This document shows positions 34,221 to 61,610 of a DNA stretch of 62,856 bases, one piece after another (position 1 is the first letter of the stretch; each line of letters starts with the position of its first letter). The position numbers and the translations under genes are program-made. Below the pieces are notes generated by a model that was given only the letters and a program-made list of their open reading frames with translations, did not search any database and was not told where the DNA came from. Source of the DNA: an uncultured Verrucomicrobia subdivision 3 bacterium (GTDB taxonomy: Bacteria; Verrucomicrobiota; Verrucomicrobiia; Limisphaerales; UBA11358); assembly GCA_903820285.1 (NCBI GenBank), contig CAIJGS010000329.1, positions 1 to 62,856 of the forward strand, read 5' to 3'.

Positions 34221-34357
34221 ATCGTCCACTAGCGGTCATCCGACCTGCCGTTGAACTGATTCAAGCTTTGGACTGAACAAAAGAACTTCCCCCGCCATTG
34301 ACACTCCCGCCTCGTTTGTTAGCGTGATAGCCTGTTGAGACATTGCAAATCAAAGGC

Positions 34358-35128
34358 ATGAATAACGAAGCGTCACCCGTCATCCAGCTGTGGTCGGCCA
34401 CGGCGGGCGCACGCTTTGATCCCGGCCGCACCGTCGCCACGGACGTGAACTGGACCGTGAACGCCGGCGAGTTCTGGGTGGTGGCCGGCGAACAGCACTC
34501 CGGCAAAAGCGATTTGCTCATGCTCGCCGCCGGGCTGCTCCCGCCCGTGGCCGGCCGCTGCGAAGTATTTGGCCGCGATGCCCGCGAACTGGATGAAACC
34601 CGGATCGCCGAACGGCTCCGCATCGGTTTTGTCTTTGAGGATGGCCGGCTGTTCCACGATCTGACCCTGCTGCAAAATATCGCCCTGCCCCTGCAATATC
34701 ACCGCAATCAGCCCGCCGAGGAGGTCCTGCGCACCTTGGAGCCACTGCTCACCCGCATGGAATTGCTGCCGCTGGTGGAAAAACTGCCGGCCGAATTAAG
34801 CCGCAACTGGTGCAAACGCGCCGGTCTCGCCCGGGCGCTTGCCCTGGAACCGGAAGTGCTCATCCTGGATAATCCTCTCCACGGCCTCGGCGCCACCCAC
34901 CGCCAATGGTGGCTGCGCTTTCTCGATGAAATCGCCCGCGAACGCAACCTCACCGTCATTCTGGCCACCGACGATCTCCGGCCTTGGGCCGGCAACGACC
35001 ACTACCGCTTTGCCCTGCTGCATGAAGGCCTGTTCCTGGCCGCCGGTCATTGGCCGGATTTGTTAAAAAACCACCCGCACCTGGCCCGGACGCTGCTGGC
35101 CGGCGCTGACCGGGAAACAGCCCAATGA
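34358..35128 (+). CDS. MlaF-like ABC ATP-binding protein with degenerate motifs
   Basis: Walker A GEQHSGKS; signature LSRNW; Walker B LILDNP; GFVFE..RLF..LT..QNIALPL. Confidence 0.8.
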   Translation: MNNEASPVIQLWSATAGARFDPGRTVATDVNWTVNAGEFWVVAGEQHSGKSDLLMLAAGLLPPVAGRCEVFGRDARELDETRIAERLRIGFVFEDGRLFHDLTLLQNIALPLQYHRNQPAEEVLRTLEPLLTRMELLPLVEKLPAELSRNWCKRAGLARALALEPEVLILDNPLHGLGATHRQWWLRFLDEIARERNLTVILATDDLRPWAGNDHYRFALLHEGLFLAAGHWPDLLKNHPHLARTLLAGADRETAQ

Positions 35129-35162
35129 TCGCCCAATAATTTTGCCCAATAAAAATTTTCCT

Positions 35163-36428
35163 ATGCCACTGCAAGATCTCACGCCCCAGCTTCGCACCCG
35201 CCTGAACCGCATGGAACGCGCCGTCGGCTGGTTTGTTTCCTTCGCCATGCTGCTGCTGCTGGCCGGCTTTATCACCTACCTCTACCACGCCGCCATCAAC
35301 AAGGGCTGGTTCAAGATCAAGGCCCAGTTTTTTATCTACGTGTCCACCGCCGACGGCATCAGCCTGGGCGACACCGTTTACCTGATGGGTTCCCCCATCG
35401 GCGCCGTCACCCGCGTGGAACCGCCCGAACCCCGCGAAAAACATGGCGTAAAAGTCACCTTTGAAGTGCTGGAGCCCAGCTACCGTTATATCTGGTCGGA
35501 AGGTTCCTATGTGAAAGCCAGTTCCTCCGGCCTGCTCGGCAAACGCGGTCTGGAAGTCACCCGCGGCACCAACGGCTTCGCCCTGTGCAGCGCCCATCCC
35601 GTCGAGCATCTGGCCGTGGATGAAGTCGCCCGCCGCGCGCTCGCCCAGCCGCAACGCTGGCAAATGTTCCAAAATCTCTACGACGCCAACTCCAACCTCG
35701 TTCTCCGCGCCTACGCCCAGCTCGTCACCACCAACCAGGATGGTTCCCTCGACACCAACAATCTCCAGCACCTGATCGAGCAGAAGCACGCCGCCGTTTA
35801 CGTTTACGATAACACCATCAAGCGCCACAGCATCGCCTCCGTCTGGAACCGCGACCAGCAACACTATGAAGAATTCACCGGCGAAGCGGTCCAGTTGCCC
35901 ATTGATGAATCCCCCGCCCTGACCGAACGGCTGGACCAGATCGTCGCCCAAATCCAGACGGCACTGCCCAATATCCTGGCGCTCACCAACCGCATCGCGC
36001 GCATTCTGGACAACACCGCCAACGTGACGTCCAACCTGAACTCCTCCCTCGTCTCCGCCCAGCCCATGATCACGAATTTTGCCGTGCTCAGTGGCAATTT
36101 GCGCCAGCCCGGTGGCCTCGGCGCGTGGGCCCTCGGCACCAACGGGGCCGACCAGCTCAACGTCGTCCTCACCAACACCGGCACCCTGCTCGCCCACACC
36201 GACACCAACCTCGACGCCATCACCGAGGACATCGGCGTTACCCTCATTCACCTCGGCAACATCACCAGCAATCTGGATACGCAGGTCGCCAACAACCCGC
36301 AAGCCATGAGCAACCTCGTCAAAAGCATCGCCGACACCGACGACCTCATCCAGGGCCTGAAACGCCACTGGCTCCTCCGCTCCGCCTTCAAGAAAAAGGC
36401 CACCAACGCCCCGGCGATTAAAAAATAG
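35163..36428 (+). CDS. MlaD/MCE-family protein
   Basis: ERAVGWFV TM, ADGISLGDTVYLMGSPIGAV, SGLLGKR, helical tail, C-terminal HWLLRSAF. Confidence 0.8.
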   Translation: MPLQDLTPQLRTRLNRMERAVGWFVSFAMLLLLAGFITYLYHAAINKGWFKIKAQFFIYVSTADGISLGDTVYLMGSPIGAVTRVEPPEPREKHGVKVTFEVLEPSYRYIWSEGSYVKASSSGLLGKRGLEVTRGTNGFALCSAHPVEHLAVDEVARRALAQPQRWQMFQNLYDANSNLVLRAYAQLVTTNQDGSLDTNNLQHLIEQKHAAVYVYDNTIKRHSIASVWNRDQQHYEEFTGEAVQLPIDESPALTERLDQIVAQIQTALPNILALTNRIARILDNTANVTSNLNSSLVSAQPMITNFAVLSGNLRQPGGLGAWALGTNGADQLNVVLTNTGTLLAHTDTNLDAITEDIGVTLIHLGNITSNLDTQVANNPQAMSNLVKSIADTDDLIQGLKRHWLLRSAFKKKATNAPAIKK

Positions 36429-49312: not shown

Positions 49313-49545
49313 TTCGGAAATTTGACAAACTACGGAAGTTCGGCGCTATTGTTTCTCCGTCCCAAGGTGTAAAACGGCAACCCAACCGCCGCCGGAAATA
49401 TCCGGAAATGAATTTTGCAAATGGCAGCTAATCAAACAGTGATGCAGTACAAACAACTCAGGGCGATGCCCGTGCGGCACACCCGGATTTTATCCGGGCG
49501 GCGGTGCCTGGCATTATGGTCCCCGGGGATGGAGTTGGCCGCATC

Positions 49546-52317
49546 ATGAAGGCGCTGAGCCAGGACAGCTTCATGGCGCGGATTCTCGGCTGGGTGGCGG
49601 CGGCCGTCCTGCGCCATCCCCGTCTGTTTGTCTGGCCGCAGATCTTGATCTTCGGCCTCTGCGTGGCTTATACGGTTTTCCACCTGAAGCTGGACATGGA
49701 CAACGACCATCTGGTCGGCCCCAACCAGCGCTATCACGCCAACCATCTGGCGATGCTCAAGGAATTTCCCGAGCCCGACCGGTTGGTGGTGGCAGTGGAG
49801 AGCGATAATCCGGAAAAAAACCGCCAGTTCGTCGAACGCATCGCCGTCAAAATCCAGGCCGAAACCAACCTGTTCCGCGATGTCTTCTACCAGCAAAACC
49901 TCTCGGTGATGCGGGAAAAAACCCTGCTGTACGCCTCCGACCAGGATCTGGTGGAGATGCAAAACCTGCTGCGCGTGGCGCAGCCGTTCATCCGCCAGTT
50001 TACGCAGACGACGAATCTCGTTTCGCTCTTTGAGCAGATCAACACCACTTTCCGTACCGCGCCGCAGGAAGAAACCACGGAGACGAAGTCGCTGGTAAAA
50101 TCGCTGCCCTCGCTCACGCGCATCGTGTCGCAGGCCGAACAGGCGCTGCAACGCTCCGGTGTGCCCCCCTCGCCCAATGTCACCACCCTGCTGAGCGGGG
50201 ATGAAAATGCGCTGCTGTCCAGTTACCTGACCTTTGCGAAGGGCCGGCTGTTTCTGGTAACAACGCATGCGCCGAATGATGATCTGACCGGCGATGCCAT
50301 CGAACGCCTGCGCGTGCTGGTGCAGCAAACGGAGGCCGAAGTGCCCGGCGTGAACGTGGGCCTGACCGGCGAGCCCGTGCTGGATTACGACACCATGATG
50401 CAGGCGCAGAAGGACACCACCCTGGCGAGCATGGTGTCACTCGTGCTGTGCGCGCTGATCTTTATTTACGGTTACAACGAAACCGGCCGCCCCATCAAGG
50501 CGACGATTTGCCTCGTGATTGGCTTGGGCTACACGATGGGCTTTACCACGTTGGTGGTCGGGCACCTGAACATTCTCACCATCACGTTCGTGCCCATGCT
50601 GATCGGGCTGGCGATTGATTTCGGCGTGCATTTGATCACGCGCTACGAGGAGGAATTGCGTCATGGCCGGACCGAAGCCGAGGCGTTGACCAAGGCCATG
50701 GTGTTCACCGGGCAGGGCATTTTCACCGGTGCCCTGACCACAGCCGGCGCGTTTGGCGCCATGGCCTTTACGAATTTCAAGGGCATCCAGGAAATGGGCA
50801 TCATCTGCGGCGGCGGCCTGATGCTGTGCCTCGTTCCCATGCTGACCATGCTGCCGGCGCTGCTGCTCCGGGGCCGGCAGAATGTGCTCGACCATAAGGT
50901 CCGGGAAGATGAGACCCGTGCGCGCATCGAAAACATCTGGCTGCAACGTCCCTGGCTTGTGGCCGGTATCACCGCCAGCCTGTGCGTGGCGGCCTTGATA
51001 GCCGGTCGCAAACTGTATTTCGATTACAATCTGCTCAAGATGCAGAACCCCCGCCTGCCCTCGGTGGTTTATGCACAGAAGCTGATGAACTCGGCGGACA
51101 AGTCGCTGCTCTACGCAGCGGTCATCACTGATTCACTAACCAATGCGGTGGCGCTGCAGCAGAAAATTGAAAAACTGCCGCTCGTGGCCGGCACGGAACC
51201 GGAGTTCTACAAGGATTTCCTCAATACCAACCAGTCCGAAAAACTGCGGCTGATCGGCCAGATCAAACAACAGGTGGCGGCAATGGATTTCGCCCCGCCG
51301 GATCCCCGGCCCGTGAATGTCGATGCCCTCACCAGCACGCTGTACAGCTTGTCCGGTTATTTGGGCAACGCCCTGGAGGCGGTCGGCACCAATGATGCCG
51401 AGCTCACAGCCCAACTCGTCCGTTTGCGGGAAGGCATTGGCAGCCTGCGCAAGACGGCCTTGCAAGGCGATGCCAAGGTGCTCGCCGAGCATGCCGACAA
51501 GCTCGCCCATTTTCAGCAGGCGCTCTTTGCGGATCTCGCGGATACGTTTCATCTGCTGCAACACCAGGACAATAGCGCCCCGCTGCAGGTAAGTGATCTG
51601 CCCCCGGCGCTGAAGAACCAGTTCATCGGCGTCTCCGGCAAATTCCTCATCCAGATTTACCCCAAGGAAGATGTGTGGGAACGTGCGCCACAGGAACGGT
51701 TCATCGCCGCGTTGCGGGCGATTGATCCGGATGTGACCGGCACACCCGTGCAGTTGTACGAATATGAATCCTTGTTGAAAAACAGTTATGTGCAGGCGTC
51801 ATGGTATTCCCTCGCGGCGATCGCCCTGATGGTGCTGATCCATTTCCGCAGCCTGACCGCCGTAATCCTGGCGCTGCTGCCGGTCGGCATCGGCACGCTG
51901 TGGCTGGTGGGCCTGATGGGCTGGCTGAAAATGCCGGTGAATCTTTCCAACATCATGACGCTGCCCCTGGTGATCGGCATTGGCGTGACCAACGGCATCC
52001 ACATCCTAAATCGCTATGCGGAAGAAGGTACGCCGGGTATATTGTCGCGCAGCACCGGCAAGGCGGTGCTCGTCTCAGGATTGACGGCCATCGCCGGATT
52101 CGGCAGTCTGATTCTGGCGCAGCACAACGGCATTCACAGCCTGGGGGTGATTATGTCGGTGGGCATTGCCATGTGCATGCTGGCGGGCTTGACGTTTTTG
52201 CCGGCCTTTTTAAATTTGATCGGACGCTGGCGTCCCTTGATTGACAATAAAAAACCCGATGCTGACGACTCGTCAACACCGGGTTCAGGAGGAACCGAGG
52301 TAAAAAACCTCAATTAA
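49546..52317 (+). CDS. MMPL/RND lipid transporter (HpnN-like)
   Basis: Two MMPL halves; GLTGEP, LIGLAIDFGVH, IGIGVTNGIH, LTAIAGFGSL. Confidence 0.88.
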   Translation: MKALSQDSFMARILGWVAAAVLRHPRLFVWPQILIFGLCVAYTVFHLKLDMDNDHLVGPNQRYHANHLAMLKEFPEPDRLVVAVESDNPEKNRQFVERIAVKIQAETNLFRDVFYQQNLSVMREKTLLYASDQDLVEMQNLLRVAQPFIRQFTQTTNLVSLFEQINTTFRTAPQEETTETKSLVKSLPSLTRIVSQAEQALQRSGVPPSPNVTTLLSGDENALLSSYLTFAKGRLFLVTTHAPNDDLTGDAIERLRVLVQQTEAEVPGVNVGLTGEPVLDYDTMMQAQKDTTLASMVSLVLCALIFIYGYNETGRPIKATICLVIGLGYTMGFTTLVVGHLNILTITFVPMLIGLAIDFGVHLITRYEEELRHGRTEAEALTKAMVFTGQGIFTGALTTAGAFGAMAFTNFKGIQEMGIICGGGLMLCLVPMLTMLPALLLRGRQNVLDHKVREDETRARIENIWLQRPWLVAGITASLCVAALIAGRKLYFDYNLLKMQNPRLPSVVYAQKLMNSADKSLLYAAVITDSLTNAVALQQKIEKLPLVAGTEPEFYKDFLNTNQSEKLRLIGQIKQQVAAMDFAPPDPRPVNVDALTSTLYSLSGYLGNALEAVGTNDAELTAQLVRLREGIGSLRKTALQGDAKVLAEHADKLAHFQQALFADLADTFHLLQHQDNSAPLQVSDLPPALKNQFIGVSGKFLIQIYPKEDVWERAPQERFIAALRAIDPDVTGTPVQLYEYESLLKNSYVQASWYSLAAIALMVLIHFRSLTAVILALLPVGIGTLWLVGLMGWLKMPVNLSNIMTLPLVIGIGVTNGIHILNRYAEEGTPGILSRSTGKAVLVSGLTAIAGFGSLILAQHNGIHSLGVIMSVGIAMCMLAGLTFLPAFLNLIGRWRPLIDNKKPDADDSSTPGSGGTEVKNLN
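52247..52315 (-). ncRNA. Candidate ~68-nt sRNA antisense to the MMPL 3' end
   Basis: TTGACT-17-TATTTT promoter (52350-52322); 5' hairpin; unpaired CCUCCUG; 15-bp terminator stem plus U-tract. Confidence 0.6.
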
Positions 52318-52424
52318 GTCCAAAATAAGTCACAATTTGCCAAAAGTCAATATCAATGTAAAATGCATGGGTAAATTGACTCATATTGGCTAATAACCGA
52401 ATACGGTAACGATAACTTTAAAAA

Positions 52425-53861
52425 ATGATTCAGCGCCAAATCGCAGTCGCAGTGATAATTAGCTTGGGAGGCGTTTTTGCCCGTCCATTGGCCGCGGCGA
52501 CGCCCAATCCCGACCGCGGTCCCGCGCTGGCGCGCTTCCAATTGACGCTCGAAGAGGGCGTTCGCACCGAGGCCGCCGGCCCGTTTTATTATTCGGAAAC
52601 CAAGGGACAGGAACATAATTGGGGCTTCATTCCCTTTTATTCGCACTACGTCGATCCGTCCGTGGAATACAGTGAGAAGGAAATTCTTTATCCCCTGTTT
52701 TCCGACATTCATTACGGCAAGGAGCATCGCTGGCAGTTCGGCCAGTTGTACAGCATTGCCCTCGGTGGAGAACCGGATGACAGCACCACCCGGCGCGTGA
52801 CCGTGTTTCCATTTTACTTCAAGCAGCGCGCCGCCGACACGAATCTGAATTATACGGCCTACATGCCGTTCTACGGGCGCCTGAAGGACCGTTTGTTTCA
52901 CGACGAAATGTATTTCGTGATGTTCCCGTTTTACGCGGAAACCCGCAAACGGGATGTGGTGATCAAAAACTACATGTACCCCTTTGTGGATGTCCGCCAT
53001 GGCGATGGCATGCACGGCTGGCAAGTGTGGCCCATCATCGGCCGCGAACACAAGGACGTGACCACCCAGACCAACGGGTTTGGCGAGGCGATCGTGGTGG
53101 GCGGCCATGACCGGTCCTTTTTCATATGGCCGTTTTATCTGAAGCAGGACAACGGCGTGGGCACGGATAATCCGGAGAAAAACCGCACTTCGTTCCCCTT
53201 CTACTCGTACTCGCGGTCACCGCTGCGGGACGCCACCTCCGCCCTCCTGATTTTCAACTGGATCGACGATCGCGGGAAAAAGTACCACGAGTGGCAGGGG
53301 CCCTGGCCGTTTGTCATTTTCACGCGCGGCGAAGGCAAGACCACGTCGCGCGTCTGGCCGGTGTTCAGCCAGTCGCATGATGCCTCGCAGGAGAGCGATT
53401 CGTACCTGTGGCCGGCGTATGTGTATCGGAGCACGCATTCGGCGGATCTGGATTTCCGGCGGACGCGCATTGGCTTTTATCTGTACGTCAGCGTGGTGGA
53501 AAAGAATCTCGCCACCGGCGGGGAACGCCGCCGGCTGGATATATGGCCGTTCTTCACCTGGCACCGGGATTTCAATGGCAACGAGCGGTTGCAAATTCTG
53601 GCCCCCGTGGAACCCGCCATCCCCGACCAGCGCGGCATTGTGCGCAACTGGTCGCCGTTCTGGTCGTTCTGGCGCGCCGAAAAGAACGCGCATACCGGGG
53701 CCACCAGCCGGTCATTGCTCTGGAATTTTTACCGCTGCGAGACCCGGCCCGGGTACAAAAAAGTCTCGCTCTGCTTCGGCCTTTTTGGGTATGAATCAGG
53801 CGGGGAAAGCAAGCCGGCCACTCCGGATTCAAGTCCTGGCCCGGCGGTGAACACTCATTGA
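52425..53861 (+). CDS. Exported aromatic-repeat protein of unknown function
   Basis: Signal peptide; about 14 repeats of a hydrophobic-P-F/L/I-Y/F motif (FIPFY, VFPFY, IWPFY, IWPFF). Confidence 0.75.
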   Translation: MIQRQIAVAVIISLGGVFARPLAAATPNPDRGPALARFQLTLEEGVRTEAAGPFYYSETKGQEHNWGFIPFYSHYVDPSVEYSEKEILYPLFSDIHYGKEHRWQFGQLYSIALGGEPDDSTTRRVTVFPFYFKQRAADTNLNYTAYMPFYGRLKDRLFHDEMYFVMFPFYAETRKRDVVIKNYMYPFVDVRHGDGMHGWQVWPIIGREHKDVTTQTNGFGEAIVVGGHDRSFFIWPFYLKQDNGVGTDNPEKNRTSFPFYSYSRSPLRDATSALLIFNWIDDRGKKYHEWQGPWPFVIFTRGEGKTTSRVWPVFSQSHDASQESDSYLWPAYVYRSTHSADLDFRRTRIGFYLYVSVVEKNLATGGERRRLDIWPFFTWHRDFNGNERLQILAPVEPAIPDQRGIVRNWSPFWSFWRAEKNAHTGATSRSLLWNFYRCETRPGYKKVSLCFGLFGYESGGESKPATPDSSPGPAVNTH

Positions 53862-53864
53862 TTT

Positions 53865-54614
53865 ATGTTTGATAACATCGGACAGATTGCCCTTCTGTTC
53901 TGGCGCACGGTGCTGGCTTTGCCGCAGACGTGGCGCCAGCGGCAGAAGGTGTTTGATCAGTTTTTCGAAATCGGCAACGCCAGCCTCCTGATGGTGTGTG
54001 TGCTGTCGTTTTTCATTGGCGCGACCATCGCCCTCGTCACGGGGCCGGTGATGGTGGAGCGCAGCCTCAGCAACGCCGTGGGCGGCGTGGTGGGTTATGC
54101 GATTGCGAATGAACTCGCGCCGGTCATGATGGCCATCCTCATCGCCGGCCGCATCGGCTCCGCCATGGCGGCGGAAATCGGGTCCATGCGCGTCTACCAG
54201 GAAATTGACGCCCTGCGCACCATGAACATCAATCCCATCACCTATCTGGTGCTGCCCCGGGTGCTGGCCATTTCGCTGGCGTTGCCCATGCTGGTGGTAT
54301 TCGCGATTCTCGTCGGCTGGTTCGGCGGCGCGGTTGTGGCCAATTTCAATCACCTGATGGACATTCCGTTCCAGGTCTTTTTTGCCGACCTGAAAGACAT
54401 TGTGCATCTCGAGGATGTCGTTCACGGCCTGATCAAGAGCTTCTTTTTCTCGGTGATCATCGGCATTATTTCCTGCCATCAGGGGCTCACGACCATTGGC
54501 GGCCCGCGCGGCATCGGCCGCTCCGTGACCAAGGCCGTGGTCAATTCCATTGTGCTGGTGGTGTTCATGGATTACATCCTCACCCTGGTCCTCACCCATT
54601 TCTCGCACCGATGA
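53865..54614 (+). CDS. mlaE: MlaE-family ABC permease
   Basis: ELAPVM, AGRIGSAMAAEIGSM, EIDAL, GGPRGIG. Confidence 0.93.
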   Translation: MFDNIGQIALLFWRTVLALPQTWRQRQKVFDQFFEIGNASLLMVCVLSFFIGATIALVTGPVMVERSLSNAVGGVVGYAIANELAPVMMAILIAGRIGSAMAAEIGSMRVYQEIDALRTMNINPITYLVLPRVLAISLALPMLVVFAILVGWFGGAVVANFNHLMDIPFQVFFADLKDIVHLEDVVHGLIKSFFFSVIIGIISCHQGLTTIGGPRGIGRSVTKAVVNSIVLVVFMDYILTLVLTHFSHR

Positions 54615-55384
54615 ATACTTCCAACGGTAACAACTCCAACGGCAAAGCAGGTGGCGTCAACCTCGTGGTGCGCGGCCTGCGCAAGAGCTTTAACGGCCAG
54701 GAAGTGATCAAGGGCATTGATTTTGAGGTCCAGCCCGGCGAAATCTTCGTCATCATGGGGCCGAGCGGCAGCGGCAAAAGTGTGCTGCTCAAACATCTCA
54801 TCGGCCTCGAACCGGCGGATGCCGGCGACATCCTGATCAATAACGAACCCATCACGAACCCGGAGATCGCCGCGAAATATCGTATGGCCCTCGTGTTCCA
54901 ATCCGGCGCGCTGCTGAGCTCGCTGACCGTCGGCGAAAACGTCGGTCTCTACCTCGCCGAACACCGGTTGAAACCGCCGGAGGAAATCGAGCGCATCGTC
55001 GCGGAAAAACTGACCGACGTCGGCCTCAAGGATGTCATGCACAAGCTGCCCTCCGAACTTTCCGGCGGCATGAAGAAACGCGCCGCCATCGCGCGCGCCC
55101 TCGTCATCGAACCGCAGCTCATTCTGTACGATGAACCGACCAGCGAGTTGGACCCGCTCTCCTCCATCGTCATCGGCGAGGAAATCCTGGAGCTGAACCG
55201 GCGCACCGGCGTGACCTCCCTGGTCGTGTCCCACGATCGCGACCTCGCCTTCGGCGTGGCCACCCGCATCGCCATCATTTCCGAAGGCCGCATCCTCACG
55301 ATCGGTACGCCGGACGAAGTCAAACAGTTCAAGCACCCCCTCGTGCAACAATTTTTGCATGCTGATTTCAAACGTGAAAGATAA
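54611..55384 (+). CDS. mlaF: MlaF-family ABC ATPase
   Basis: GPSGSGKS, FQSGAL, LSGGMKKR, YDEPT. Confidence 0.93.
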   Translation: MNTSNGNNSNGKAGGVNLVVRGLRKSFNGQEVIKGIDFEVQPGEIFVIMGPSGSGKSVLLKHLIGLEPADAGDILINNEPITNPEIAAKYRMALVFQSGALLSSLTVGENVGLYLAEHRLKPPEEIERIVAEKLTDVGLKDVMHKLPSELSGGMKKRAAIARALVIEPQLILYDEPTSELDPLSSIVIGEEILELNRRTGVTSLVVSHDRDLAFGVATRIAIISEGRILTIGTPDEVKQFKHPLVQQFLHADFKRER

Positions 55385-55396
55385 ACCATTCCGCCT

Positions 55397-56347
55397 ATGA
55401 AAAACTCCCTCGAAACCAAGCTCGGCGTCTTTGTCGTCCTCGTCATCTTCGCCGCGTGGGCCATCGTTGAAACCCTCGGCAGCGCCGATATCTTCAGCCA
55501 CGGCTACCATATCAGTGCGCAATTCGACAACGCGCAGGACCTCAAGATCGGCGACCGCGTCAAAATGGCCGGCGTCGAAATCGGCCGCGTGGACAACATC
55601 TCCCTCAGCGATGAGAAGGTGGTTGTTACCATGAAGCTCAAGAGCGACGCCGTGGTCCACACCGACAGCAAGGCCGCCATCAAGTTCACCGGCCTCATGG
55701 GCCAGAACTTTGTCGCCGTCGGCTTCGGCTCCGCCGCCGCCCCCAAAGCCGCCGATGGCGCCGTGCTCGAAACCTATGAGCAGCCCGATCTCAGCGCCAT
55801 CATGGCCAAGCTCGACACCGCCGCCAGCGGCATCCAGAACCTCACCAAGAGCTTCACCGGCGACAAGATCGACAACCTCATCGGACCGCTCACCGACTTC
55901 TTCAAGCAGAACAGCGGCCCCATCACCGCCACCATTGCCAACGTAAAGAACATTTCCAGCCAGATCGCCGCCGGCCAGGGCACCGTGGGCAAGTTGATTT
56001 ATGACGAATCGCTGTACGCCTCCGCCATGACCACCGTCACCAATCTGCAGGACACCGTGGCCTCCGCCAAGCTCGTCGTGGACAACGTCAATTCCGGCCA
56101 GGGCACCATCGGCAAATTGCTGACCGATGAAACCCTTTACCGCGCCACCACCTCCTCCATGACCAACCTGAACGGCATCCTGTCCAAGATCAACGGTGGC
56201 AACGGCACCGTCGGCAAACTCGTCAACGACCAGGAATTCTACAAAAACGCCAAGCTCTCCCTCCAGAAACTCGACAAAGCTGCCGACGGCCTCGAAGACC
56301 AGGGCCCGCTGAGCGTGCTCGGCATTATGGCCAACAACCTGTTCTGA
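55397..56347 (+). CDS. mlaD: MlaD/MCE-family protein
   Basis: ETKLGVFV, GDRVKMAGVEIGRV, GLMGQ, three GTxGKL repeats. Confidence 0.92.
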   Translation: MKNSLETKLGVFVVLVIFAAWAIVETLGSADIFSHGYHISAQFDNAQDLKIGDRVKMAGVEIGRVDNISLSDEKVVVTMKLKSDAVVHTDSKAAIKFTGLMGQNFVAVGFGSAAAPKAADGAVLETYEQPDLSAIMAKLDTAASGIQNLTKSFTGDKIDNLIGPLTDFFKQNSGPITATIANVKNISSQIAAGQGTVGKLIYDESLYASAMTTVTNLQDTVASAKLVVDNVNSGQGTIGKLLTDETLYRATTSSMTNLNGILSKINGGNGTVGKLVNDQEFYKNAKLSLQKLDKAADGLEDQGPLSVLGIMANNLF

Positions 56348-56389
56348 TGGTCCCGGCGGACGGCTACCGGCCCCGCGAATGATTCAACG

Positions 56390-56426
56390 AAGACCCGGCC
56401 TTTAAAACGCCGGGTCTTTTTCTTTT
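56390..56426 (+). terminator. Intrinsic terminator of the mla operon
   Basis: AAGACCCGGC-9-GCCGGGTCTT followed by TTTCTTTT. Confidence 0.8.
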
Positions 56427-56435
56427 ATATCAAAG

Positions 56436-56972
56436 TCAATTTTTACCAGCCGCATCCGCCTGCGCTTTCTGAATCTGTTTCACCAGGTCGTTGTATTTCG
56501 CGACGATGTCGTTGCGGTCTTTGATGGCGGCGTTGTATTTCGTCACGAGCTCGTCGCGCTGGGTGGCCAGTTCCGCGAGCGCGGCGTTCTGCTTGGTGAT
56601 GCCGGTGGCGGCTTCTTTCAACTTGGCTTCGAGAGCGTCCACGCCGGTCTGATATTCGGCGACTTGGTTGGTGAGGCTTTGGTTCAGGAAGCTGATCCGG
56701 TTGAGTTCGCGTTTCTGCGTGGTGATCAGAGCTTCATTGGCCTGCGCAGCCTCCTTGAGGGTGGTCAATTCGGCATCAAACGTGCCAACTTGGTGGTTGA
56801 GCGTGGCCAGGGAATTGGTATAGCCCTGGATGGCAGTGTCCCGCTGAAAGACAAGTTGGTTAAGCCCGCCGATGGCATTACGCTGTACGATTTGATCGTG
56901 CCACTGATAAAGGCAGAGACCGCAGAGGCCGATGGCCAGGACGATGAGCAGGTTGCGTTGGAAATATTTCAT
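56436..56972 (-). CDS. Membrane-anchored coiled-coil protein
   Basis: N-terminal TM then heptad-rich sequence; 5 nt after exbD. Confidence 0.75.
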   Translation of the reverse strand: MKYFQRNLLIVLAIGLCGLCLYQWHDQIVQRNAIGGLNQLVFQRDTAIQGYTNSLATLNHQVGTFDAELTTLKEAAQANEALITTQKRELNRISFLNQSLTNQVAEYQTGVDALEAKLKEAATGITKQNAALAELATQRDELVTKYNAAIKDRNDIVAKYNDLVKQIQKAQADAAGKN

Positions 56973-56977
56973 AGGAT

Positions 56978-57397
56978 TCAGGGCTGGCCGGGCAAGGTTT
57001 TGACGGCGAGGGCGACGCGCTGGACGCCGGCGTGCTTAACAAAGTCCAGGGCAAACATCACATTGCCATGAGTGGTGTCCCGGGTGCCGGTAATGTAAAC
57101 GGGCAGATTGGTGTTCAGGCTCAGCCGATTCGTGAGCAGGGTAAAAAGATCCGGCAGGCTCAGCGCGCGGTCACCCACCGAAATCTGGCCGTCTTTCTCC
57201 ACGGTGAGGTTGACGATATCCGGCTTGGTCGCAGCGGTGGCGAGCGTGGCGGTCGGCAGGCCGGCCTTGAGCGTGCGGACGATCTGCATCTGCAGGCTGA
57301 CCATCATGAAGGCGGCGAGCAAAAAGAACATGATGTCAATCAGCGGAATGATCTCCAGCCGGGTCTTGGCAGCAGGCAATGGATTGCGAATTTTCAT
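56978..57397 (-). CDS. exbD: ExbD/TolR
   Basis: IIPLIDIMFFLLAAF. Confidence 0.92.
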   Translation of the reverse strand: MKIRNPLPAAKTRLEIIPLIDIMFFLLAAFMMVSLQMQIVRTLKAGLPTATLATAATKPDIVNLTVEKDGQISVGDRALSLPDLFTLLTNRLSLNTNLPVYITGTRDTTHGNVMFALDFVKHAGVQRVALAVKTLPGQP

Positions 57398-57822
57398 GGC
57401 ATGGTGGCGGCGGGTGATGGACTGGCAACCATGAAGGCAACTTTTTGCACGCCGGCACGGCGGACAGCTTCATAGACATCCACCATATGGGCCTGCACGG
57501 TATTGCGGTCGCCGCTGATATACACCGGCAGGTTGGTATCGGCGTGGCAGCGATTGCTGACCGTGAGATACAGTTCCGCAAGCGACACCTGCCTCTTTTC
57601 AATCCAAGGCTGACCGGCTTGATCCACAGCGATATTGATCATATCCGGCTTGTAGTCGGGCTTCGCCTGCGCGGCGGGTGGGAGATTAACTTTAATGTTG
57701 GCGTTCCGGCTCATTTGCAGGCTCACCATCATGAAGGCGGCGAGCAGAAAGAACATGATGTCGATCAACGGAATGATCACGATCCGCGTCCGGCGCTGGG
57801 GAATGGGCGAGGTTATTTTCAC
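57394..57822 (-). CDS. exbD: ExbD/TolR
   Basis: IIPLIDIMFFLLAAF, VNLP, ISGD. Confidence 0.92.
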   Translation of the reverse strand: MKITSPIPQRRTRIVIIPLIDIMFFLLAAFMMVSLQMSRNANIKVNLPPAAQAKPDYKPDMINIAVDQAGQPWIEKRQVSLAELYLTVSNRCHADTNLPVYISGDRNTVQAHMVDVYEAVRRAGVQKVAFMVASPSPAATMP

Positions 57823-57831
57823 CGGGAATGA

Positions 57832-58464
57832 TTATTTGGCGGCGGGTGGCTGATCTTTTTTGCCGCCGACCATGACCTCGATGTTGGTGGCGGCGGTTTC
57901 CAGCTCAAACTGCAACTGGGTGACCTTGGCGGAAAAAATATTGTAAGGAATGAGTGAAACGATCGCGATGCCAAGGCCGCAGGCCGTGGCGATCAATGCC
58001 TCGCCAATGCCGCCAGTAACGGCCGAGACCGAAAGTTCCGCACTGCCGATGTTCAGGAAGGCGCGCATGAGACCGGTGACCGTGCCGAGCAAACCGAGCA
58101 GCGGGGCGAGCGTCACAAGGGTGTCCATGATGGTCAGAAATCGCCCGGCGCGCCGGAGCTCAATCCCGGCGGCGAGCTGCAGGGCACCTTCAAGTGAGGT
58201 GTGAACGTGGTTCAAGCCGCGGTAAATCATGCGAACAATGGGGTCGCCGGAATCCTCGGCGATTTTCGTAGCGGCGGGGACGTCGTGGTTTTCAATGGCC
58301 GCCAGAATTTGCTCCAGCTTGTGCGGTTCACGACGGCGGCTCTCGCGCAGCCACCAGAACGTTCGTTCGCCAACGACCGCGATGGCCACGATGGCACTGA
58401 TGAGAATGGGCCACATGATGGGCCCGCCTTTGAGGAAGAATTCGATGACGATGTTGGCTAGCAT
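57832..58464 (-). CDS. exbB: ExbB/MotA/TolQ
   Basis: GGPIMWPI, APLLGLLGTVTG, EALIATACGL. Confidence 0.93.
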   Translation of the reverse strand: MLANIVIEFFLKGGPIMWPILISAIVAIAVVGERTFWWLRESRRREPHKLEQILAAIENHDVPAATKIAEDSGDPIVRMIYRGLNHVHTSLEGALQLAAGIELRRAGRFLTIMDTLVTLAPLLGLLGTVTGLMRAFLNIGSAELSVSAVTGGIGEALIATACGLGIAIVSLIPYNIFSAKVTQLQFELETAATNIEVMVGGKKDQPPAAK

Positions 58465-58487
58465 AATGAATGGTTTGGTTTGCGGGA

Positions 58488-59186
58488 TCAGTTCAGTTGG
58501 AGACGATAAATGATGGTGGTTTGAAAGGTGCGATTTCCGTTTCCGCCCGGCAGGTGCCAGTGGCGGCGGATAAAATCCACGGTGGCGCGGTCCAGAATGG
58601 GATAACCGGAGGAGCTTTTCAGATCCACGGACAGGACATTACCGGCGGCATCCGCTTGCAGAGTAACGGTCACACTCCCCTGCTCGCCTTGCTCCTTGGC
58701 GATGGGCGGGTAGGACGGCGAGGGTCGGTCCCCGCCGGTGCCTGTATCAGCCACGGACTGGATGCGGGCAGAGACGCTCATGGGTTCCGCCGGAGGTGCG
58801 GCGGCCATCGAGGCGGGCACGACCAGTCCGCCCAGCGTGGGCACCGAAAACTGGATGTTCGGCAGGGACGGAATCACAACGGCCACCGGCGTGGCCTCGG
58901 CGGCGGGATCAGGACGCTCCTGTTTTTGCGGCTGGCTGTCAGTAGGCGGAATCACGACCGGTTCGACGACCACCGGGACGGGTTCATCCAGAGGCGCCAC
59001 AGCGCGGATATCCACGGATCCGCGCCGGGCGCCGCACAGGCCGATGAGCAAAAAGACGAGGCACACCGAGTTGACCCAAGCGAGCGGGCGCTCGGGATCG
59101 CGGTCAGCCCCGGGGAGACAGAGGCGCGCCAGATCGTCTTGCAAGCCGGCTCCGGGATTCAACCGGCTGGCTTCGTTTGATTTCAT
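58488..59186 (-). CDS. tonB: TonB energy transducer
   Basis: TM, Pro-rich linker, YPPIAKEQGEQGSV, SSGYPILD. Confidence 0.88.
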   Translation of the reverse strand: MKSNEASRLNPGAGLQDDLARLCLPGADRDPERPLAWVNSVCLVFLLIGLCGARRGSVDIRAVAPLDEPVPVVVEPVVIPPTDSQPQKQERPDPAAEATPVAVVIPSLPNIQFSVPTLGGLVVPASMAAAPPAEPMSVSARIQSVADTGTGGDRPSPSYPPIAKEQGEQGSVTVTLQADAAGNVLSVDLKSSSGYPILDRATVDFIRRHWHLPGGNGNRTFQTTIIYRLQLN

Positions 59187-59208
59187 GTTTGGATGCGGGC
59201 GAAGCGCT

Positions 59209-61473
59209 TCAGAATGCGTAGCTGAGAGAACCAAAGAATCCGAGTCGTTCGCCGTATTGCGCGGCGTTCACACCCACGCCGGAACCGTCGCGCAGTTCGT
59301 ACACGTTGTCCGTCAGGTTCACCACGTCGAGCCGGGCTTTCAGCATCCGCTTGTGCGGCAGGTTGAAACCCTGTTCGATGCCGACGTTGATGGAGTAATA
59401 GGCCGGCACGCTGGCACCGTTGGGAATATTCGAGCCATCGGCGGCCGTGCCATCGGTGCGCAAGCCGCTGCCATAGAGGGCATCCATGAAAACGCGCGTG
59501 CGGCCGGTGTCGCCTTCCTTCCAGGTGTAGGCAATGCCGAAGGAGCCGGTGTAGCGCTGGTCGTGATCGAGGGAGATCCAGTGGTTCTGGACGTAGGCGG
59601 CGTCCGTGGGATCAAACAGGAACTGCGAGGAATTCCAGCCTTTGCCCTGGGCCTTGGAGTACGCGACGTTCGCGTAAACGGAAAAGCCGTGGTGCTCGTA
59701 GCTGGTGGTGAATTCCACACCATAGATGCGGCCCACGGAATAATTGAACGCGGCCGGAATCAGGCTCTGCCCAAAGAGGCCGTCATCCAACTGGTTTTGG
59801 GCGGTCTTGTAATAGCTGTCGAGACCGGCCTGCCAGCCGGGCAGAAGTTTCTGGCTGACGCCGACGTCATAATAATTGGCGCGCTCGGATTTGACGTTGC
59901 TGTCCAGATCGGTGGCGGACTGGTTGGAGGTGCCGTCAAATTTCGTCAGGCTGCCGGCGGAAACACTCTCGGCTGGCGGCGGGGTGAAGTAACGCGAATA
60001 CCCGGCATGCAGCGTGGTGGCATCGGTGGGCTGATAAATGAGGTTCACGCGCGGGCTAAGCTGGTTTTCGTTGTCGAAGGACGAATTGTAAACATCGAAG
60101 CGTGCGCCGTAGTTGAGGGTGACCTTCGGCAGGAGTTTCCATTCATCCTGCAAATAAACCCCGGCAAACATCGCCTTGATGTTGGAATTATCCACGATGT
60201 TGGTGAGGCTGGTGGGATTGCCGGACACCGGGTCCAGATTGAAGGCGGTGGTGGAGGTATCCACGGCGGTGGATTCGCTCATCAGCATGGCTCCGCCGCG
60301 CAGGGTGTGCTTATCGCCGAGCTCATAGCTGGCATCGGCCTGGAGGCCGCCGGAGTAGAGGTTGCGCTGGACGTCGCTGGCCACGCCATTGTAATAGAGG
60401 TCCCCCACGGGGTCGGGGGTGAAGTGGACATCGCTATTCCGGACAAAGGTGGAGACCTGCAGGTTCAGGTCGCCGGCCGATTTCTGGTAGGCAATGACGC
60501 CGTAATAATTCTGCTCGTTCTGGTTTTCATTGAGGTTGGCGGAATTGAAGCTGGTGGCCGACTGGCCGGGCATGGCCGTCCACCACGGATTGGGCGAGGG
60601 ATTGGACGTGGTGGCGCCGGGCGCGCCGGGGTCCAGCCCGGGTGTGTTCGGAATCTGAAAATCGCTATAGTCGGCGCTGCCCATCACGCTGATCCGGCTG
60701 GTGTCATCCAGAATATAGGACAGATAGGTAAATCCCCGGTACTGGCCGGTGGTGTCATGGATGGCATTGTGGCTGGCGGTGGGATTCTCGATGCCCAGAT
60801 CATTGTGATCGTAGCTGCCATCGAAGAAGTAATTGAGTTTCCCTTGCGAGCCGCCGTATTCGAAGCTGGGGCGGTAGGTGTTGTAGCTCCCGCCATAGAC
60901 TTCGCCACTGCCACCGTTTTCAAAGGCGCCGCTTTTGGTCTGAATATCCACCACGCCGGCCGTGCGGAAACCGTATTGCGCCGGCAGGGAGCCGGTGATG
61001 AGCTGCATGGAATCCACAAAGCGCGGGTCCAGTTCCTGGCCGAAGCCGGTGACGCCCTCGGGAAGGAGCACATCGTTGATGCGGTACTGCAGGTTCGCAT
61101 GTTCGCCGCGCACGTGCAGCCCGCCGTTCGGGGCGGAGTCCTCCGCCACGCCCGGCGCGCGGAGGATGATCTGACTGAAGGGAGCATTGCCGCCCTGCGA
61201 AGCCGATTCGATCTGCGACTGGTTGATCGTGTAGGCCGAGGCGCCGAGCGACGGCACGATCTGGCTGCGCGCCTGGTTCAACTGACCGACCACGGTCACA
61301 TTGCCCAGATCAGTGACGTTGGTGACGCCGCCGGCAGGGATGTTGTTTGTGGAAGTAACGCTATTTGACTGGGCGAAGGCCGCTGTCCCGCAGGACAGGG
61401 CCGCCGCCGAAATGACCGACCGATAAAATTTACCGCTGCTGACGTTATGCTGCTTTGTTGCCAATTTTTTCAT
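59209..61473 (-). CDS. TonB-dependent outer-membrane receptor (putative metal uptake)
   Basis: Signal peptide, VTVVG TonB box, plug (PGV..VRGEH), YLQDEW, SPRVN, NLTD, terminal YAF. Confidence 0.93.
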   Translation of the reverse strand: MKKLATKQHNVSSGKFYRSVISAAALSCGTAAFAQSNSVTSTNNIPAGGVTNVTDLGNVTVVGQLNQARSQIVPSLGASAYTINQSQIESASQGGNAPFSQIILRAPGVAEDSAPNGGLHVRGEHANLQYRINDVLLPEGVTGFGQELDPRFVDSMQLITGSLPAQYGFRTAGVVDIQTKSGAFENGGSGEVYGGSYNTYRPSFEYGGSQGKLNYFFDGSYDHNDLGIENPTASHNAIHDTTGQYRGFTYLSYILDDTSRISVMGSADYSDFQIPNTPGLDPGAPGATTSNPSPNPWWTAMPGQSATSFNSANLNENQNEQNYYGVIAYQKSAGDLNLQVSTFVRNSDVHFTPDPVGDLYYNGVASDVQRNLYSGGLQADASYELGDKHTLRGGAMLMSESTAVDTSTTAFNLDPVSGNPTSLTNIVDNSNIKAMFAGVYLQDEWKLLPKVTLNYGARFDVYNSSFDNENQLSPRVNLIYQPTDATTLHAGYSRYFTPPPAESVSAGSLTKFDGTSNQSATDLDSNVKSERANYYDVGVSQKLLPGWQAGLDSYYKTAQNQLDDGLFGQSLIPAAFNYSVGRIYGVEFTTSYEHHGFSVYANVAYSKAQGKGWNSSQFLFDPTDAAYVQNHWISLDHDQRYTGSFGIAYTWKEGDTGRTRVFMDALYGSGLRTDGTAADGSNIPNGASVPAYYSINVGIEQGFNLPHKRMLKARLDVVNLTDNVYELRDGSGVGVNAAQYGERLGFFGSLSYAF

Positions 61474-61610
61474 AATAAATCCAATAATGGTTAAGTTAAT
61501 GGGCGGATCTGCACAGAGCCGCCCTCTGCCATGCACACGCACGGCAGAGTTATTGCCAAGGGAATCAAACGGAAATCAGCCGCCACGGACAGTGGCGACC
61601 GAACGGAATA

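Follow-up and report, generated by a model that had tools for sequence, protein, structure and literature searches.

The stretch of DNA analysed herein (the window, 62,856 nt) is contig CAIJGS010000329.1 of assembly GCA_903820285.1, a genome (the window genome, G000) that is 90.8% complete and divided over 395 contigs. Our subject is a row of five genes on its plus strand, which the map of open reading frames (ORFs) together with Pfam and NCBIfam matches resolves, in order, as an HpnN-like transporter gene of the MMPL/RND type (hereafter MMPL), a gene of an undescribed family that we refer to as UNK, and the mlaE, mlaF and mlaD genes of an MCE/Mla transporter of the ATP-binding cassette (ABC) type. 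The MMPL gene (49546–52317; PF03176, E 2.3e-53) lies in an ORF that spans 49504–52317 and opens at GTG 49504; since its relatives align from residue 13–15, the ATG at 49546 is the likely start. It is followed by an AT-rich gap of 107 bases with a promoter-like site on the plus strand (TTGCCA-16-TAAAAT, 52337–52364), which is a match to the consensus only, at 10 of 12 positions. UNK (52425–53861) encodes a secreted protein of 478 residues that is predicted to consist of repeated beta-hairpins and has no family match in Pfam or NCBIfam, and its stop codon stands 3 bases ahead of the ATG of mlaE (53865–54614), a permease gene recognized by PF02405 (E 4.7e-70) as well as by TIGR00056 (220.8 bits, above the cut-off of 212.2). 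The mlaF-type ATPase gene (54611–55384; PF00005, ABC_tran, E 2.8e-32) overlaps mlaE by 4 bases and scores 164.8 bits with the specific MlaF model NF008809, under its cut-off of 441, and the long mlaD (55397–56347) encodes an MCE domain at residues 36–109 (PF02470, E 2.6e-19). With a MlaE-family permease, an adjacent ABC ATPase and a membrane-anchored MCE-domain protein all present, the MCE/Mla ABC core is complete in the window. The row is closed by an intrinsic terminator on the same strand (56389–56429), predicted from an 11-bp stem (56389–56419), then UUUUUCUUUU with its U-run (−19.4 kcal/mol, z −4.73; none of 200 shuffles folds equally well), which a consensus scan missed because its loop has 9 bases. 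An earlier note on this DNA had recognized both the five co-oriented genes closed by a terminator and the 3-nt spacing ahead of mlaE, and the ORF coordinates and the folding energy agree with it on both counts.

The arrangement UNK-mlaE-mlaF-mlaD is a conserved unit in several phyla. Among 11 close relatives (46–92% identity), mlaE lies downstream in all 11, and MMPL lies upstream in each of the 10 for which upstream DNA is available. In 40 loci picked to spread over the families of Verrucomicrobiota (the phylum loci), the four genes are contiguous and on one strand in 33; one further locus is partial, with mlaF-mlaD at a distance of 6 kb from UNK-mlaE, and in the other six UNK stands alone. 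A set of 44 loci from metagenomes, for which a clade labelled Thermodesulfobacteriota (the P0210 clade) served as the seed, has mlaE directly downstream of UNK wherever there is room for it (37/37) and all three mla genes in 33 cases, and the sample of the window’s order (29 loci) has mlaE downstream in 27 of the 28 loci with room, genome G366 being the exception. This gene order is kept across phyla at identities of 24–32%. The lone copies of UNK adjoin unrelated genes, e.g., a gene of the phosphoglucomutase/phosphomannomutase family or yajC, and in the six genomes whose best UNK copy is a lone one, an MlaD of the tail type described below is encoded elsewhere in the genome.

The MlaD of the window consists of an N-terminal transmembrane helix, the MCE domain and, as the earlier note had pointed out, a long tail, which reaches ~200 residues beyond the MCE domain. 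The tail carries three GxGTxGKL repeats and closes with a conserved hydrophobic C-terminal peptide that ends in Phe; we found no C-terminal barrel of the Veillonella type on this protein, in which the ~35 residues after the last repeat end in the 13 residues of that peptide. Thirty-five UNK-linked MlaDs, when aligned, share this layout of an MCE domain, three to five GxGTxGKLxxDDxLY repeats and a conserved end, which reads DDxRETxPIxxFxSxxFGAF in most of the verrucomicrobial rows and is of the same kind in the second (P0210) clade (...DLAPLxxxGxAFGxxTxF); the C-terminal peptide of the subtype ends in Phe or Leu. Because the profile of the UNK-linked MlaDs aligns with the needle protein Mce1B (8fed_B) over 14–265 (E 2e-22) and with the 312-residue MCE protein 13hr_I over 11–282 (E 1.1e-17), sequence comparison supports a needle-like nature of the tail.

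Across a sample of 301 genomes of the phylum, the family profile of UNK matches 152 and a profile made from the last 100 residues of the MlaD tail matches 150, where 146 genomes have both, six UNK only, four the tail only and 145 neither, a table that overstates its statistical weight since the genomes are related and not independent. The agreement holds family by family, and five of the six UNK-only genomes have marginal UNK matches (E 1e-6 to 1e-9). The phyletic profile of UNK matches that of one MlaD subtype near-perfectly. A second mlaE-mlaF-mlaD operon of the window genome (contig C24, L087:7673–10178, plus strand) is without UNK, and the MlaD that it encodes (326 residues, 24% identical) is without the GxGTxGKL repeats and the C-terminal motif. 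The earlier note had tied the unknown gene to the MCE system, and the synteny across Verrucomicrobiota and the Thermodesulfobacteriota-type clade, together with the co-occurrence with a single MlaD subtype, bears this out. The same note had held that homologues without linkage to mla or MMPL genes would speak against its proposal; linkage to mla was found in most of the phylum loci (33/40) and in every metagenome locus with room (37/37), and linkage to MMPL was not found outside the window’s order (see below).

Judged from its sequence, UNK is exported and mostly without lipidation: its signal peptide contains no Cys and no lipobox, and even a loose lipobox pattern is matched by only 8 of 83 family members. 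Phe, Trp and Tyr make up 17.4% of the protein, and aromatic-Pro-aromatic motifs occur at a median of 14 per family member. The family comprises 989 clusters (at 50% identity) at E ≤ 1e-3 and 642 at E ≤ 1e-10, and a word-indexed search returned 1536 matches, for each of which the source name is “hypothetical protein”. According to the labels of the metagenome-assembled genomes (which, as products of binning, may err), members are found in Verrucomicrobiota, Thermodesulfobacteriota, Ca. Dadabacteria, Methylomirabilales and Desulfuromonadales. No family recurs when the 83 members are searched against Pfam at E ≤ 1 (three families, with one member each, E 0.077–0.31), the family profile has no match at E ≤ 1 among the sequences of the PDB, and no additional domains were found in the long UNK-containing ORFs of six loci. 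Literature searches, which did not reach most subscription journals, found no description of the family. The protein is therefore as undescribed as the earlier note had supposed, and a characterized, unrelated family to which it might belong was looked for in Pfam, NCBIfam and the PDB and not found.

The AlphaFold (AF2) model of UNK, built from an 83-row alignment, reached a predicted local distance difference test score (pLDDT) of 91.8 and a predicted template-modelling score (pTM) of 0.81 (an alignment of 21 close relatives gave a pLDDT of only 34), and shows 43 short strands and almost no helix. The strands measure 4–8 residues and are mostly polar on both faces, with a mean face hydropathy of at least 1.4 in only nine of the 43, and the prediction for the whole protein is an elongated antiparallel sheet made up of ~21 hairpins, with faces that are mostly polar. 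Alternate turns carry the aromatic-Pro-aromatic motif (FPF, WPF, MYPF, etc.) and the turns between them are short, often with Gly; because the motif sits on every second turn, the sequence and the strand list suggest that the aromatic-proline turns line one edge of the sheet, provided that the sheet is a simple meander. When the model was compared with known structures by VIA-align, the top folds were single-layer sheets, i.e., the SAS-4/CPAP TCP (G-box) domain (Z 9.6), MORN1 (9.4) and an engineered OspA (9.4), with the belt of ApoB-100 at 9.0 and lipovitellin at 6.6; as all Z values for UNK are below 10 and lie near the stated background of the tool (7–8), the fold class is tentative, and the matches do not imply family membership. 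What UNK would share with the MORN, CPAP/SAS-4 TCP and OspA sheets is a chain of hairpins forming one extended sheet (Z 9.2–9.6 over 130–210 residues), whereas none of the 83 family members matches such Pfam families and the proteins in question are eukaryotic or spirochaetal, with unrelated roles. No match of the LptD, TamB or LolB type was obtained above Z 7 in VIA-align, and the beta-propeller, teneurin and similar structures that Foldseek returned from the PDB (TM 0.10–0.15, root-mean-square deviation 19–36 Å) were rejected as local hairpin similarity.

Two further candidates were weighed on the same material. Integral outer-membrane beta-barrels are expected to end in an aromatic residue (the beta-signal); UNK ends in His, and across the 83 family members the final residue is Phe in three and never Tyr or Trp. 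Porin and Omp85 barrels match the model in part (Z 6–7.4, ~100–190 aligned residues of 478). Given the short polar strands, the missing C-terminal aromatic residue and nearest folds that are soluble single-layer sheets, an integral outer-membrane barrel was not supported, and neither, in this respect, was the earlier note, which had taken UNK for an outer-membrane partner. A PqiC-like lipoprotein was rejected, as UNK has neither a PF03886 match nor a lipobox.

The locus holds no further ORF, and hence no mlaA, mlaB or mlaC, as the earlier note had stated. Within the 90.8% complete window genome, neither MlaC (PF05494) nor a PqiC-like protein (PF03886) was found. A MlaA homologue (PF04333, 178.7 bits) does exist, unlinked to the locus, as a 643-residue ORF on contig C344 (L086:3547–5478, minus strand); it has an unexplained C-terminal extension of ~390 residues and adjoins a gene with acyltransferase and AMP-binding domains, which we take to resemble an Aas-type lysophospholipid-recycling enzyme. 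Elsewhere in the window (34343–36428, plus strand), a second MCE protein (428 residues; PF02470, E 6.4e-8) is encoded directly after an ABC ATPase gene, and no MlaE-type permease was seen beside the two. Downstream of mlaD, a convergent cluster on the minus strand (56436–61542) encodes a TonB-dependent receptor (777 residues), ExbB and two ExbD proteins, and a 178-residue coiled-coil protein occupies the position of tonB.

We consider it somewhat better than an even bet (a probability of about 0.55) that a distinct subtype of MCE/Mla ABC lipid transporter, with the gene order UNK-mlaE-mlaF-mlaD, has UNK as its fourth component, a secreted one; UNK would then probably be an accessory subunit new to MCE transporters. 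By analogy with Mce1, PqiB, MpcD and the MlaD of Veillonella, MlaE2F2 and an MlaD hexamer would form the inner-membrane engine and a tube spanning the periplasm, and UNK would sit at, or lie along, the distal end of this tube. There it would take the C-terminal peptide of MlaD, in the way that PqiC-like lipoproteins do on the tails of PqiB and PA3213, and its aromatic edge might make contact with the outer membrane's inner leaflet or with the lipid that is carried. As cargo we envisage a lipid of the envelope at large, with phospholipid the likeliest. The MMPL would be an HpnN-type hopanoid exporter that became the upstream neighbour of UNK only in the window’s order. Several points weigh against this proposal. 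UNK is found apart from mlaEFD in 6 of the 40 phylum loci and in genome G366, so the link is not obligatory at the gene level; the genomes in which UNK and the MlaD tail co-occur are related; and the MlaA homologue on contig C344 could serve either mlaEFD operon. Moreover, the fold class assigned to UNK is tentative, and its location, its binding to MlaD, the cargo and the direction of transport are inferred. A prediction of the complex (UNK 25–465 with MlaD 120–316, one copy each, own alignments) returned a score of 0.00 and a mark of 0.32 with the fold of the partner uncertain, and was not used as evidence.

The alternative that fares best, unlikely as it is, would make UNK a soluble periplasmic lipid carrier, analogous to MlaC, that travels with its lipid between the outer membrane and the MlaD ring and does not dock permanently. 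Such a carrier would fit a genome in which MlaC was not found, a protein that is secreted, mostly non-lipidated and polar on its faces, and the resemblance of the model to the lipid-binding sheet belts of ApoB-100 and lipovitellin, but it meets with an MlaD whose long tail is of the needle type, which in known systems replaces the shuttle (PMC10665443, PMC12436622). Furthermore, neither the secondary structure nor the hydrophobicity pattern of UNK points to an enclosed hydrophobic pocket, and the conserved C-terminal peptide of MlaD suggests a docking site.

HpnN transports hopanoids to the outer membrane. The MMPL of the window aligns with the HpnN model TIGR03480 over nearly its full length (positions 6–856 of 862), and because its scores with this model (566.3 bits) and with NF052374 (320.8 bits) fall under both curated cut-offs (751.85 and 1100, respectively), it ranks as HpnN-like, short of a certified equivalog. 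An HpnN-type role, as proposed in the earlier note, is nevertheless well supported by gene context. MMPL homologues at E ≤ 1e-60 occur in 10 of the 301 phylum genomes, and all nine of these other than the window genome carry a squalene-hopene cyclase (compared to 14/301 overall), the two genes being adjacent in genome G033. In the window genome itself, with its 90.8% completeness and 395 contigs, the cyclase was not found, which we read as an assembly gap and not as absence, because 80 of the order's 81 genomes, a congeneric one among them, have the cyclase above cut-off.

The earlier note had gone further and proposed that all five genes form one trans-envelope pathway, in which UNK, as an outer-membrane protein, couples the HpnN-type RND pump to the MCE system for the transport of a hopanoid-like lipid. 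We regard this as distinctly unlikely. Within the window’s order the association holds, with the MMPL directly upstream of UNK in 22 of the 27 loci with room (and in 10/10 close relatives, see above) and the cyclase nearly universal, but near UNK the MMPL is found in none of the 40 phylum loci and none of the 44 metagenome loci, and where the two genes do occur together in a genome outside the order (three cases, G001, G033 and G258), they lie on different contigs. In addition, 147 of the 152 UNK-positive phylum genomes have no cyclase match at E ≤ 1e-40, which rules out hopanoid specificity for the UNK-MlaEFD system. The suggested comparison with hopanoid genes thus gave a divided answer, in that the MMPL goes with the cyclase (9/9) and UNK does not. 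At the locus itself, the 107-base gap and its promoter-like site separate the MMPL from UNK, which speaks against a single five-gene unit, and the MMPL probably has a transcription unit boundary of its own; the lack of membrane-barrel features in UNK tells against its assigned place in such a pathway.

Closer arrangements were seen in a few cases. In genome G366 (contig C99, L165:4763–8388, minus strand), MMPL, UNK and a true squalene-hopene cyclase (474 and 343 bits) stand in a row, with mlaE not downstream, and in genome G309 (contig C5, L167:14147–16042, plus strand) the third gene after mlaD is a divergent, weakly matching cyclase-like one (SQHop_cyclase_C, 125 bits). The genes between mlaD and the cyclase-like gene of G309 are one for a 192-residue protein of no known kind and one for a DCC1-like oxidoreductase. 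In two metagenome ORFs in the databases, P0363 (1288 residues, named HpnN-like by one source) and P0364 (872 residues), an in-frame linker joins MMPL and UNK into a single reading frame; they are 2 of 4698 longer candidates scored, and since both retain the Met and the signal peptide of UNK itself, a lost stop or an error of gene calling is just as likely an explanation as a true fusion. The G366 row and the two fusion ORFs are weak hints at coupling within the order. Overall, the position of the MMPL next to UNK is best read as co-location of genes for outer-membrane lipids, and not as one machine; the coupling of RND and MCE transport claimed by the earlier note was not supported.

A more specific picture, to which we give as little credence as to the five-gene pathway, would have UNK form a single-chain beta-ribbon of ~20 nm (43 strands at about 4.8 Å, if the sheet is extended), whose aromatic-proline edge acts as a hydrophobic rail or outer-membrane docking blade beside the MlaD needle and, in the window’s order, serves the HpnN-type pump as well; were it true, bacteria of the PVC (Planctomycetes-Verrucomicrobia-Chlamydiae) and Desulfobacterota types with a barrel-less MlaD would gain an outer-membrane link, and RND and MCE transport would be physically joined. 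Least likely of all is an envelope structural, cell-wall or assembly factor that has nothing to do with lipid transport and is merely co-transcribed with mlaEFD, which would suit a protein without a recognizable functional domain that stands alone beside unrelated genes in 6 of the 40 phylum loci, but leaves a gene order kept across phyla at such low identities, and a near-perfect match to one MlaD subtype, hard to explain without a shared function. In the preferred reading, that of a fourth transporter component, what is new here is an undescribed accessory family on an MCE transporter, and an RND-MCE pathway for hopanoids amounts at most to an association particular to one lineage. To the question of lipid passage across the periplasm in bacteria outside Proteobacteria, UNK brings a concrete candidate part, and it would add to the list of MCE parts a family without a Pfam, NCBIfam or PDB sequence match.

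The known systems closest to the one proposed differ mainly in the partner at the outer membrane. The E. coli MlaFEDB-MlaC-MlaA system has homologous MlaE, MlaF and MCE domains, but its MlaD is short (chains of 183 residues) and it is accompanied by a STAS protein, a soluble shuttle and a lipoprotein of the outer membrane, whereas in the window MlaB and MlaC are absent from the locus and the MlaA homologue is encoded on another contig. MlaEFD is described as a widespread core in a study on Veillonella parvula, where it likewise forms a minimal core without MlaC and an elongated MlaD is proposed to span the periplasm (PMC10665443). The Veillonella MlaD ends in an outer-membrane barrel of 10 strands of its own, and the same report states that MlaDs of the PVC group in general lack both this barrel and the MlaA/MlaC partners (PMC10665443). 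In the window system, by contrast, a short peptide closes the MlaD tail, and the beta-protein is a separate product whose gene lies upstream.

Needle-type systems with a separate partner offer a nearer parallel. For P. aeruginosa PA3211-PA3214 and E. coli PqiABC, it is reported that the MCE needle binds its outer-membrane partner through a C-terminal peptide, such peptides being ligands of outer-membrane lipoproteins (PMC13631591). Like PqiB and PA3213, the UNK-linked MlaDs carry a conserved hydrophobic C-terminal peptide, through which the tail may bind UNK; the partner in the two known systems is a PqiC-type lipoprotein with a hydrophobic groove (PMC13631591). The Brucella abortus MpcEFDA system combines an engine of the MlaE/MlaF type with a single-MCE protein of ~330 residues that has a helical needle, is without MlaC, and has a fourth, secreted partner in the same operon, for which a role as the needle's cap at the outer membrane is proposed (PMC12436622). 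That partner, MpcA, a PqiC-like lipoprotein, assembles into an octameric ring, and its gene stands last in the operon (PMC12436622), whereas UNK is encoded by the first gene and is a 478-residue protein predicted to be an all-beta hairpin repeat, with no PF03886 match and no lipobox. We propose, by analogy, that the UNK system works in the manner of MpcEFDA, PA3211-PA3214 and PqiABC, which are MCE transporters of the needle type capped at the outer membrane, with UNK in the place that a PqiC-like lipoprotein takes in each of them.

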